Assembly: GCF_017348835.2 (NCBI RefSeq)
Contig: NZ_CP071375.1
Length of the DNA: 64,000 bases
Source: Escherichia coli
Lineage (GTDB): Bacteria > Pseudomonadota > Gammaproteobacteria > Enterobacterales > Enterobacteriaceae
Direction: 5' to 3' (one strand)
Below are positions 35,801-41,800 of the stretch, piece by piece. A program made the position numbers. Position 1 is the stretch's first letter, and each line of letters begins with the position of its first letter.

Positions 35801-38800
35801 CAACAACACTCGCCCGTCGATATCCCATGAATGGATGGTCCGCGGGCGCGGATACTCCGTTGCCAGTTCGCCGTAGACATCATCTTCAAAAATCACAATA
35901 TCATGACGCTGAGCGAGAGAGAGAGAACGGCCCGTTTGCGTGCGTCCGGCATAATAAATCCCAGCGGATTATTACAGTTTGGCACCAGAATGATGCCTTT
36001 AATCGGCCACTGTTCCAGCGCCAGTTCCAGCGCTTCAACGCTGATGCCAGTTTCTGGATCGGTTGGGATTTCAATCACTTTCACGCCCATACCGCGCAGC
36101 ATTTGCATCGAACCGTAATAACAGGGGGATTCGACCGCGACAATATCGCCCGGTTTACACACCGCCATTAACGCCAGCGACATCGAGTTATGGCAGCCGC
36201 TGGTGATAATGATGTCATCGGCGGTGACCACCGAGCCGCTGTCGAGCATCAGGCGGGCAATCTGCTCTCGCAATACCCGCTGACCGGCTAACAAGTCATA
36301 ACCGAGCACGGTTTGTAGATTATGCTGCACCACCCGGCTTAGCTCACGCCAGAGTGGTTTCAGGCTGGGCGTTTCGACATCCGGCGTGCTTTTGCTTAAC
36401 GGAACAATGGAACTGTCGCTATGCGCCTCCAGCATATCCAGCACCTGATCCCACTGGGTAATTTCCACCGGGCGCTGCACCGGACGCGTCATCGGCGGTA
36501 CAGGCGGCTGGGCTTTACGTTGTGCGACAAAATAACCCGAACGCGGCTGCGGAGTGATGAGCTTCATCGTCTCCAGCGTCTGGTACGCCTGCTGCACGGT
36601 GCTGATGCTGACGCCGTGCTCCTGACTTAAGCTGCGCACCGACAGCAATTTCTCCCCGTGACGATACAGCCCTTGCTCAATCCGCTCGGCAAGCAGAGTT
36701 GCCAGATGTTGATAACGCGTCATGCTGTATTCCTTATTTGGACCATACAGATAGAGAAACCGGTACAGATGAGGCTAAAAAACCGGATGCAGATGCTGTT
36801 TTAACCTGTCTGTATGTTAAATAAAACTAATATTTGCATCTGTATTGTGAACTGCCAGAAGGCGGATGATGAAGCCTCTGAAAGATGAGGAGGCAGCAGA
36901 TGGAATTTCACGAAAACAAAGCCAAAACGCCGTTTATCAGACTTGTGCAACTCTGGCAGGCGGTGAGGCGTTGGCGGCGGCAAATGCAGACCCGACGGGT
37001 GTTACAGCAGATGAGTGATGAGCGGCTGAGGGATATCGGGTTACGCAGGGAGGATGTGGAGTGAACTATGGGCGGCGTGTTGGCAAATGCTGCCTGTCTG
37101 CATTCAAAATTGCTACAAAATCCAACCATAAAAGTCGTTTACAACATATTTTTCTGATTTACATACAGATAATGACCTGAGCTGTCTCTCTGGGGGTCAT
37201 CATCTATGCGTCCGGGGGATCTGTCACAAAAAGGAATAGAACAAAATCATCAGCGGTGAATAAAGCGATTCGTTTTAGATCACATTAATGAAATTTTTGT
37301 ATCAAAAATTAGTTATCGCGCTCACAGTTCATAATGAAACAATTCTCTGCAAATAGATAACCGAAGCTTCGTTGCTAGTATCAATTCGCTAATTATACAC
37401 CTGCCAGAGGATACAATGAAAAATAGAAATCGTATGATCGTGAACTGTGTTACTGCTTCCCTGATGTATTATTGGAGCTTACCTGCACTGGCTGAGCAGT
37501 CGTCAAGTGAGATAAAGATTGTTCGCGATGAATACGGCATGCCGCATATTTATGCCAATGATACATGGCACCTATTTTATGGCTATGGCTATGTAGTAGC
37601 ACAAGATCGCCTTTTTCAGATGGAAATGGCACGTCGCAGTACTCAAGGGACTGTCGCGGAAGTGCTTGGCAAAGATTTTGTGAAATTTGATAAAGATATC
37701 CGTCGTAACTACTGGCCGGATGCTATCCGGGCGCAAATTGATGCCCTTTCCCCAGAGGATATGTCCATTCTGCAAGGCTACGCTGATGGAATGAATGCCT
37801 GGATTGATAAGGTAAATACCAATCCAGAGACGCTCTTACCAAAACAGTTTAATACATTTGGCTTTACTCCTAAGCGCTGGGAACCGTTTGATGTCGCGAT
37901 GATATTTGTGGGCACCATGGCAAACCGCTTCTCTGATAGCACTAGCGAAATTGATAATCTGGCACTGCTAACGGCTTTAAAAGATAAATATGGTGTATCA
38001 CAAGGCATGGCGGTATTTAATCAGTTGAAATGGCTGGTAAACCCATCAGCGCCAACCACTATTGCCGTACAAGAGAGTAGCTACCCACTTAAATTTAATC
38101 AGCAAAACTCGCAAACAGCAGCTCTGTTGCCACGCTACGATTTACCTGCACCAATGCTTGACCGACCAGCAAAAGGGGCGGATGGCGCACTGCTGGCGTT
38201 AACAGCAGGGAAGAACCGGGAAACTATTGCTGCACAATTTGCACAGGGTGGTGCCAATGGTCTGGCGGGGTATCCAACGACCAGCAATATGTGGGTGATC
38301 GGCAAAAGCAAAGCCCAGGATGCGAAAGCAATCATGGTAAATGGTCCGCAGTTTGGCTGGTATGCGCCTGCGTATACTTATGGTATTGGTCTGCACGGTG
38401 CTGGTTATGATGTCACTGGCAATACACCATTTGCCTATCCTGGGCTGGTTTTTGGTCATAATGGTGTGATTTCCTGGGGATCAACGGCAGGTTTCGGCGA
38501 TGATGTCGATATTTTTGCTGAACGGCTGTCGGCAGAGAAACCAGGCTACTACTTGCATAATGGTAAGTGGGTGAAAATGTTAAGCCGTGAGGAAACCATT
38601 ACGGTGAAAAATGGTCAGGCAGAGACCTTTACTGTCTGGCGTACGGTGCATGGCAACATTCTCCAAACTGACCAGACGACACAAACGGCTTACGCTAAAT
38701 CCCGCGCATGGGATGGTAAAGAGGTGGCGTCTTTGCTGGCCTGGACTCATCAGATGAAGGCCAAAAATTGGCAGGAGTGGACACAGCAGGCAGCGAAACA

Positions 38801-41800
38801 AGCACTGACCATCAACTGGTACTATGCTGATGTAAACGGCAATATTGGTTATGTTCATACTGGTGCTTATCCAGATCGTCAATCAGGCCATGATCCGCGA
38901 TTACCCGTTCCTGGTACGGGAAAATGGGACTGGAAAGGGCTATTGCCTTTTGAAATGAACCCTAAGGTGTATAACCCCCTGTCGGGATATATTGCTAACT
39001 GGAACAATTCTCCCCAAAAAGATTATCCCGCTTCGGATCTGTTTGCCTTTTTGTGGGGGGGGGGCAGATCGCGTTACGGAGATCGACCGACTGCTTGAGC
39101 AAAAGCCACGCTTAACTGCTGATCAGGCATGGGATGTTATTCGCCAAACCAGTCGTAAGGATCTTAACCTGAGGCTTTTTTTACCTACTCTGCAAGCAGC
39201 GACATCTGGTTTGACACAGAGCGATCCGCGCCGTCAGTTGGTGGATACATTAACACGTTGGGATGGCATCAATTTGCTTAATGATGATGGTAAAACATGG
39301 CAGCAGCCAGGCTCTGCCATCCTGAACGTTTGGCTGACCAGTATGTTGAAGCGTACCGTAGTGGCTGCCGTACCTATGCCATTTGATAAGTGGTACAGCG
39401 CCAGTGGCTACGAAACAACCCAGGACGGCCCAACTGGTTCGCTGAATATAAGTGTTGGAGCAAAAATTTTGTATGAGGCGGTGCAGGGAGACAAATCACC
39501 AATCCCACAGGCGGTTGATCTGTTTGCTGGGAAACCACAGCAGGAGGTTGTGTTGGCTGCGCTGGAAGATACCTGGGAGACTCTTTCCAAACGCTATGGC
39601 AATAATGTGAGTAACTGGAAAACACCTGCAATGGCCTTAACGTTCTGGGCAAATAATTTCTTTGGTGTACCGCAGGCCGCAGCGGAAGAAACGCGTCATC
39701 AGGCGGAGTATCAAAACCGTGGAACAGAAAACGATATGATTGTTTTCTCACCAACGACAAGCGATCGTCCGGTGCTTGCCTGGGATGTGGTCGCACCCGG
39801 TCAGAGTGGGTTTATTGCTCCTGATGGAACAGTTGATAAGCACTATGAAGATCAGCTGAAAATGTACGAAAATTTTGGTCGTAAGTCGCTCTGGTTAACG
39901 AAGCAGGATGTGGAGGCGCATAAGGAGTCGCAGGAAGTGTTGCACGTTCAGAGATAATTAAGCCCGAAAGCCCTCATATTCTGGAGGAATATGAGGGTGA
40001 TAAAGTCTCAAGTATTGTGATGTTGGAGGGCTGGTTACTTTTTGAGTCCCGCAAACGCCGCCCGAATCTCATCCTCCGGCAACTGAATCCCGATAAACAC
40101 CATCGTGCTATGCGGTTTTTCATCGCCCCACGGGCGGTCCCAGTCGGCGCTGTAGAGGCGCTGGACGCCCTGGAACAGCAGGCTGTTAGGTTCGCCGTCA
40201 ATCCACAGCATCCCTTTGTAACGCAGCAGTTTATCCGCCGATTCCAGCAGCAGGTTTTCCATCACCCGGGAAACTTCGCTGATATCTACCGGGTAATCCA
40301 GTTCCACCACAATCGACGAAATATCGTTTTGTTTGTCCGCGATAAAATGGAAACGCGGTTTGGTGCTGACGACGTTTTCTTCCAGCATAAAACCGTTGGT
40401 GTTGAACAGCAGACCCAGGTCGATGTCGCCGTGGGTGACGGTGTAGACCGGTGCACGGGCGTTGATGCGTGCCAGACGTTCACGCAGTTTTTCTGCTTCG
40501 CCTGCGACGTCGGTTTTAGTCAGCAGAATACGGTCGGCGTAGCCCACCTGGGACTGGGCGATGGTGAACTGGTTCATCTGCTCATCGGCATGTACCGCAT
40601 CCACCAGCGCAATCACGCCGTCCAGCAGGTAGCGCTGGCATAAAATCTCATGGGAGAAAAAGGTTTGAATAATCGGGCCAGGATCGGCCATGCCGGTGCA
40701 TTCAATGACCAGACGATCGAACTGAATATTGCCCTTGTCGAGATTATCCAGCAGGTCGAGTAGCGCGTCCTCCAGCTCGTTGGAGCGCGAACAGCAGATG
40801 CAGCCGTTGGTCAGCGTTTTGATCTGCGTGGCGCGGTCGCCAATCAGTTGATCATCAACGGAGACTTCGCCGAATTCGTTTTCAATCACGGCAATCTTGT
40901 AGCCGTGTTGTTCATTAAGAATATGGCGCAGCAGGGTGGTTTTGCCCGCGCCTAAAAAACCGGTGAGTAGGGTAACTGCAATCGGGTTCATGCTCTCTCC
41001 ATTAACAACAGCGCATACCGCCTTTACCATCGCCGCCGTAGCGCGCGTTCTGGCGTTCGCGGAAGAATTCTTCATAGCTCATGTACGGCTTGTCGGGATG
41101 GTTGGTCTTCATATGCTCGACGTAGTTGTCGTAGTCTGGAATGCCAATCAACATCTTCGCCGCCTGGCCGAGATATTTTTTTGCCTGTCCTAAGTTACCA
41201 AACATAGTTCACTCTGATAAGAACAAAGCCCCGCCGAAGCGGGGCTAAACACGGTTAGTGGTGCGAAGAAATCTTCACGCCGCCTTCCGGGATTGGAACG
41301 TACGGAGTTTCTTTGTCAGTACGTTTGTCGCTGTTACGCACCGCAAGCCAGGTTTTGAAACCGTAGAAGATGATGCTGTACACCACAATCAGGAACAGAA
41401 TACTCAGGCCTGCGTTGGTGTAGTTGTTCACAACGATGTGGTTCATGTTGGCAATCTGCTGCGCCGTCAGGTCAGTACCGTTAGCAATCTTCTCTTTGTA
41501 CTGGCTTGCCATGTAGAAGAAGCCTTCCATCTGCGGGTTGGTGCTGAACAGTTTCAGGCCCAGCGCCCAGGTGGTGCAGATAAGCAGCCATACAGCCGGA
41601 ACAACAGTTACCCAGATGTATTGGGTGCGCTTCATCTTAATCAGCACAACGGTGCCCAGTACCAGCGCTACGGCTGCCAGCATCTGGTTGGAAATACCGA
41701 ACAGCGGCCACAGGCTCTTAACGCCGCCCAGCGGATCGACCACGCCCTGATACAGCAGGTAGCCCCACAGACCCACACAGCCCGCAGTACCGATGATACC

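Follow-up and report, generated by a model that had tools for sequence, protein, structure and literature searches.

The 64,000-nucleotide stretch of Escherichia coli DNA analysed here (NCBI RefSeq assembly GCF_017348835.2, contig NZ_CP071375.1; hereafter the window) carries a pac gene, encoding the precursor of penicillin G acylase, that is broken into two reading frames at an uninterrupted run of ten G residues. The tenth G, in our view, is probably no artefact but a heritable +1 slippage change (G9 to G10, the number giving the length of the run), and it would leave this strain without working enzyme. The gene sits where other pac-positive E. coli have it, flanked by yjiS and yjiA and alongside the hpa cluster; in E. 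coli W it takes the place of the immigration control region (PMC3032704).

Our explanation is as follows. Two silent T-to-G changes created the long G run in some E. coli pac alleles, and slipped-strand mispairing during DNA replication would then add or remove Gs at this run of 9–10 bases, consistent with the exponential climb of indel rate with run length at E. coli mononucleotide runs (PMC11754648). Gs have been gained and lost many times independently, leaving roughly half of the run-bearing genes out of frame. In a G10 gene the ribosome would leave the frame after β-Gly260 and stop 12 codons later, and the truncated product, without residues β261–557, is not expected from the solved structures to form the Ntn-hydrolase heterodimer. 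Such off-states may persist through relaxed selection on an accessory gene.

A split penicillin G acylase gene

The sequence-only reading of the window had proposed that pac is divided between two overlapping frames, and this is confirmed: the open reading frames (ORFs) 37416–39098 (560 amino acids) and 38992–39957 overlap in different frames, and each half aligns with chains of E. coli penicillin G acylase structures (the α chain at residues 27–235, the β chain from residue 290, with E-values down to 1e-282). Homology to the Ntn-hydrolase penicillin G acylases extends over the full precursor, that is, signal, α subunit, spacer and β subunit, and the Pfam domain PF01804 (Penicil_amidase) is found on both fragments in related loci. 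The site reads T GGGGGGGGGG CAGAT, its Gs occupying 39055–39064, and sequence and ORFs alike place the change of frame there, at the junction …FAFLWGG, as that reading had stated. Its further claim that one G fewer would give a single frame of 846 codons also holds. Removal of one G yields a 2541-nucleotide ORF with no other stop or lesion, and the repaired 846-residue protein is identical to that of strain PE164 (WP_233708264.1, ‘penicillin G acylase’). The repaired translation keeps the β-Ser1 nucleophile, β-Gln23, Ala69, Asn241 and Arg263, and α-Met142, Arg145 and Phe146.

The intact G9 allele reads TGG GGG GGG GCA at this point and encodes Trp-Gly-Gly-Ala (β258–261). Read with G10, the correct frame is lost after β-Gly260 and a stop is reached 12 codons on; the displaced frame opens two codons before the catalytic β-Arg263, and the first product lacks β261–557, i.e. 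β-Arg263 and the 294 residues beyond it. With truncation immediately ahead of β-Arg263 and the loss of more than half of the β chain, the gene is most likely inactive and the off-state most likely a null, a conclusion drawn from the solved structures. The unbroken frame expected of an active acylase is absent, being interrupted at 39055–39064, and identical alleles are entered in RefSeq as frameshifted pseudogenes: in strains A29 and EC2001 the same 2542-nucleotide stretch is labelled ‘penicillin G acylase, frameshifted’. The coordinates of all parts of the gene are collected in Table 1.

Tract length across the species

The gene is present in 1074 of 5426 complete E. coli genomes. Among complete genomes, queries of 87–92 nucleotides with exact 40-nucleotide flanks found G7 in 3 genomes, G8 in 51, G9 in about 302, G10 in about 210 (these two counts are approximate, their identity bands being inflated by at most 3 partial matches), G11 in 25 and G13 in one. 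G9 is the commonest state, and about 49% of the uninterrupted tracts are out of frame, a share of genomes and not of independent events. None of the complete genomes queried has G12, a length that would keep the frame and add one Gly. The longest tract seen, an apparent G13, is that of strain W137 (NZ_CP163067.1), in which 93 nucleotides align with the 92-nucleotide G12 query with one gap. Among metagenome contigs, eight carry G9, one G10, one G8 and seven an allele in which the run is interrupted.

Evidence for recurrent change comes from the comparison of close relatives. In an alignment of 45 pac sequences with 55 columns of single-nucleotide polymorphism (SNP), identical 2.5-kb haplotypes differ in tract length (G8/G9/G10, G10/G11, G10/G8 and G9/G8), and a neighbour-joining tree built from about 10 kb in 24 genomes calls for at least 12 changes of tract state. 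Different tracts also sit within near-identical flanks, as in UTME-9 (G11), OkiPb01717 (G8) and O111 05-3004 (G10). The locus has two of the features expected of a phase-variable gene, namely a repeat in the coding region at which a change of ±1 shifts the frame, and lengths that differ in both directions among close relatives. A control for stability is provided by the GGGGTGGTG allele, which specifies the same amino acids with an interrupted run and has kept its length in 24 of 24 sampled complete genomes and 7 of 7 metagenome contigs; in nearby yjiR, just 2 of 3551 complete genomes depart from a (GA)5 repeat. In these comparisons, the tract demonstrably behaves as a slippage hot spot.

Origin of the uninterrupted run

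The peptide FAFLWGGADRV is kept in Kluyvera, Lelliottia, Leclercia, an Enterobacter metagenome-assembled genome and Buttiauxella, with Gly codons that are interrupted; the longest run in these genera is G7, in one Buttiauxella. Since the codons are interrupted in other genera, the pure G9 run is derived within E. coli, where two synonymous third-position T-to-G changes in a subset of pac alleles made TGG GGG GGG GCA from TGG GGT GGT GCA. The intermediate alleles GGGGGGGTG and GGGGTGGGG, expected as 89-nucleotide matches with one mismatch fewer, were not seen in 60-row spread samples.

A run of this kind is only mildly unusual by chance alone: shuffling the window gives an expected 0.21 G or C 9-mers, and two matches are reached in 6 of 100 shuffles. 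Elsewhere in the window no run of G or C exceeds 6, and its homopolymers comprise 21 runs of 7 and one T9. Apart from the pac tract, only the T9, at 21885–21893, is 8 or more bases long; it has the same length in PE164 and EC2001 and sits in or beside a small ytiD-like ORF upstream of idlP/iraD.

Switch or decay

Recurrent loss and gain of frame could be more than the by-product of a mutable sequence. On one account the G run is a contingency locus, kept by selection because reversible on/off expression of the acylase is advantageous. In keeping with this, the run owes its existence to two synonymous changes, no other long G/C run occurs in the window, expansions and contractions are both seen and G9 is still the commonest state. 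Moreover, the relatives that surround PE164 (G9) in the tree have G10, and parsimony takes its G9 for an off-to-on reversion, and the window’s off allele is without a second lesion. However, mutation alone predicts recurrent length change at a run of 9–10 bases, a literature search found no report of such phase variation, and the other lesions known in pac point to decay of a dispensable gene.

These lesions are varied. In many O111 and related Shiga toxin-producing E. coli genomes (e.g. O111:H8 7-54 11A, locus coordinates 2753–3966), pac is split near codon 205 by IS1203, an insertion sequence of the IS3 family; genes split in this way still vary in their G run (G9 in E2855 and 7-54 11A, G10 in RM9131), and other O111:H8 genomes have G10 or G11 without the insertion sequence. 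The pac gene of 2013C-3264 (locus coordinates 3402–5941) has an annotated internal stop, that of SW07164 a 6-nucleotide insertion at window-equivalent position 37577, and one further locus a 1-nucleotide deletion in a T run at window-equivalent position 39176. Independent lesions of this sort suggest that selection on the gene is relaxed in some parts of the species, and the pattern fits a decaying dispensable accessory gene in which the G run would be the easiest target.

Adaptive phase variation is therefore a possibility that such comparisons allow, but selection for it is in our estimation unlikely. We are also doubtful, if marginally less so, that the run is a genuine reversible switch toggling a periplasmic enzyme that scavenges phenylacetyl amides and is linked to the neighbouring hpa aromatic-acid pathway, with natural off-to-on reversions such as that of PE164. 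A difference from the classic contingency loci is that E. coli is mismatch-repair proficient, and to our knowledge simple sequence repeat (SSR) switches of the poly-G type have rarely been described in it. A reversible pac switch, if true, would be of a type rarely documented in a mismatch-repair-proficient enterobacterium, and would govern a metabolic and not a surface function.

Is the tenth G real?

The strain may in truth be G9 with pac intact, the tenth G being a miscount in the assembly behind the window: long-read assemblies err at runs of 9–10 identical bases, PE164, the nearest relative, has G9 and an intact gene, and A29, likewise G10, has C-run indels that break neighbouring genes. 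The neighbourhood of the tract speaks against this. Over 42.5 kb the window differs from PE164 at three places only, namely a SNP, a 1-bp indel between genes and G10 versus G9, and across this distance every other homopolymer has the same length in the window as in PE164 and EC2001. Within pac itself, A29 and EC2001 are each one SNP from the window and PE164 differs by the gap only; the near-identical haplotypes of A29, EC2001 and one metagenome scaffold all have G10.

Nor is the G10 allele a rarity. The window’s 90-mer spanning the tract is identical in about 210 of the 1074 pac-bearing complete genomes, and its exact 560-residue product is encoded by 610 contigs in NCBI, JGI, ENA and Logan, two further variants of 560 residues being encoded by 542 and 107 contigs, whereas the intact protein of the window’s haplotype is found in 9 contigs only. 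All nine of the independent loci encoding the 560-residue product that were fetched have G10, draft assemblies and a metagenome scaffold among them. Tract lengths are also inherited clonally. Five genomes of one haplotype, from unrelated sources, all have G10 with clean flanking genes; the clonal sets EC19/20/24 and M6/9/11/15/19 are all G11; and strain G3/10 has G8 both in its complete genome and in an older draft protein record. E. coli HS has G8 in four of four separate records, and it follows that switching is not so fast as to set laboratory stocks apart.

Eighteen genomes with off-length tracts were fetched, and 17 of them have undamaged flanking genes, flags falling only on pac or on an unrelated yjiR/mdtM lesion. 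The exception is A29, where extra bases in several short C runs break yjiN, mdtM and btsT, a pattern typical of an unpolished assembly that lowers confidence in its G10 relative to the remaining records. The extra bases lie at positions 42, 1824, 2051, 11407 and 11899 of its fetched locus. The marks of an artefact, i.e. irreproducible lengths, errors at other homopolymers and a distribution random with respect to ancestry, are not seen. A one-off sequencing error is very unlikely as the source of G10 and, because G10 is common and heritable, occurs in many independent assemblies and is accompanied by no other homopolymer difference from the nearest relative, we also consider a miscount in the window itself improbable.

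The sequence-only reading had left three options: a homopolymer sequencing error, a real inactivating mutation or a slippage-prone tract. The second and third, in combination, are favoured, and the first is unlikely in view of how widespread and heritable G10 is. That reading had also looked to a count of 9 Gs in raw reads as evidence against its proposal; such a count would concern only one strain, and the genomes show that 9 and 10 are both genuine natural states.

Against a real and inactivating slippage mutation it must be weighed that the window’s G10 is known from the assembly alone, with G9 in PE164; that some of the public length variants may be long-read homopolymer errors, as the several C-run indels of A29 illustrate; that clonal sampling inflates the counts of tract length; and that the loss of enzyme activity is deduced from structures.

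Rescue by recoding

Continued expression of the G10 gene, with slippage of RNA polymerase or the ribosome on the G run putting a useful share of products back in frame, is highly improbable: ten Gs do allow Gly-tRNA to re-pair in neighbouring frames, transcriptional slippage can occur on long homopolymers and the ORF has no second lesion, but across the E. coli transcriptome slippage insertions are confined to A/T runs, G and C runs not being prone to them (PMC5574713), G10 would require a one-base deletion or a two-base insertion, and the off-states are split between the two wrong frames (G8/G11 and G7/G10/G13), so that one programmed shift could not restore them all. Folding of the RNA downstream of the tract revealed no frameshift stimulator, the sequence being not unusually stable (z = +1.1 against shuffles), and in-frame G9 and interrupted alleles make up the majority, which is not the pattern of programmed recoding. 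A promoter scan around pac gave nothing above shuffle expectation, and a search for terminators only weak internal terminator-like matches.

Features of the locus

Table 1. Parts of the pac locus in the window. Subunit boundaries follow the alignment to PDB chains 1ai4_A (query 27–235), 1e3a_A (27–286) and 1gk9_B (from 290).
Feature	Position	Strand	Remarks	Basis
pac (penicillin G acylase precursor) pseudogene	37416..39957	+	2542 nt, 1 base more than the intact 2541-nt gene	PDB matches, RefSeq annotation, PF01804
Upstream frame	37416..39098	+	560 aa	ORF list; exact product in public records
Signal peptide (upstream frame)	37416–37493	+		Alignment to PDB chains
α subunit (upstream frame)	37494–38120	+		Alignment to PDB chains
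Spacer peptide (upstream frame)	38121–38282	+		Alignment to PDB chains
β subunit residues 1–260 (upstream frame)	38283–39062	+		Alignment to PDB chains
Out-of-frame codons	39063–39095	+	11 codons, then stop TGA at 39096–39098	ORF list
G10 homopolymer	39055..39064	+	Frameshift site and slippage hot spot	Sequence; length variants G7–G13 in E. coli
Displaced frame	39064..39957	+	β residues 261–557 (ADRVTEIDR…HVQR) and stop	Translation, residue check

Two further small differences lie outside pac. The yjiR gene, encoding a pyridoxal phosphate (PLP)-dependent aminotransferase-family regulator, is also frameshifted in the window, by (GA)6 in place of (GA)5 at 35915–35926 on the minus strand, leaving fragments in ORFs 35893–36723 and 35309–35896; this is an SSR frameshift 3 kb from that of pac. 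Among the 3551 complete genomes, only PE164 and UTME-9 carry (GA)6, and the repeat was rejected as a lineage marker because it is homoplasic, UTME-9 having a different flanking haplotype. At window position 54450, between hpaG and hpaR, a C present in PE164 and EC2001 (GGAATTGCAGGGAC) is absent from the window (GGAATTGAGGGAC). This position lies outside any repeat, in the divergent hpa regulatory region, and the missing C may be either genuine or a fault of the assembly.

Implications

Presence of pac is no predictor of acylase activity, since about 290 of the 1074 pac-bearing complete genomes (about a quarter) are out of frame at this site. Unless the length of the tract is checked, function will be overestimated in screens for natural producers of penicillin acylase, in metabolic models and in pan-genomes scored by gene presence. 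The site also serves as a useful quality-control marker: a pure run of G9–G10 that varies in nature will look like a sequencing error, and polishing may wrongly force it to the length of the reference. For the study of evolution, the locus offers a clear case in which two silent substitutions created a mutational hot spot, with the interrupted sister allele as a built-in stable control. Homopolymer frameshifts and SSR switches are well known, and RefSeq already flags pac alleles as frameshifted; a literature search for the pac poly-G tract, its population behaviour or a pac pseudogene found no description among the papers covered. The hot spot is of an ordinary kind, yet apparently undescribed for an industrially famous gene.

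Comparison with known systems

The closest comparison is with the E. coli penicillin G acylase of ATCC 11105 / E. coli W (PDB 1PNK, 1GK9 and 1E3A), which is the product of the same gene at the same locus. It differs from the repaired window protein by 6 residues over 846 and shares the catalytic residues β-Ser1, Ala69, Asn241 and Arg263. The W/ATCC-type allele carries GGGGTGGTG at the site, however, whereas the window allele has the uninterrupted G run, one base over, and is read in two frames.

The contingency loci of Neisseria, Haemophilus and Campylobacter (PMC5084427) likewise have poly-G or poly-C tracts within coding sequence, at which changes of one unit toggle the frame, and the pac run, 8–13 long, shows several lengths among close relatives. 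Unlike those loci, pac encodes a periplasmic scavenging enzyme and not a surface or restriction-modification function, and its behaviour is known here from comparative sequence alone. The 7C frameshifts of Mycobacterium tuberculosis glpK are also comparable: recurrent ±1 changes in a G/C homopolymer inactivate a metabolic gene and apparently restore it, across clinical or natural isolates (bioRxiv 10.1101/717272). For glpK, experiments showed a drug tolerance phenotype and reversibility, in place of the comparative evidence that we have for pac. Recurrent ±1 changes across isolates are also a feature of the microevolution of homopolymeric tracts in Bordetella pertussis (PMC1891110).

Ordinary homopolymer pseudogenes, finally, share with pac a single-base indel in a run and other, independent lesions in other lineages. 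What sets pac apart from ordinary decay is that the same site has been struck repeatedly and in both directions and that most of the inactivations seen lie there, a more concentrated pattern of loss.

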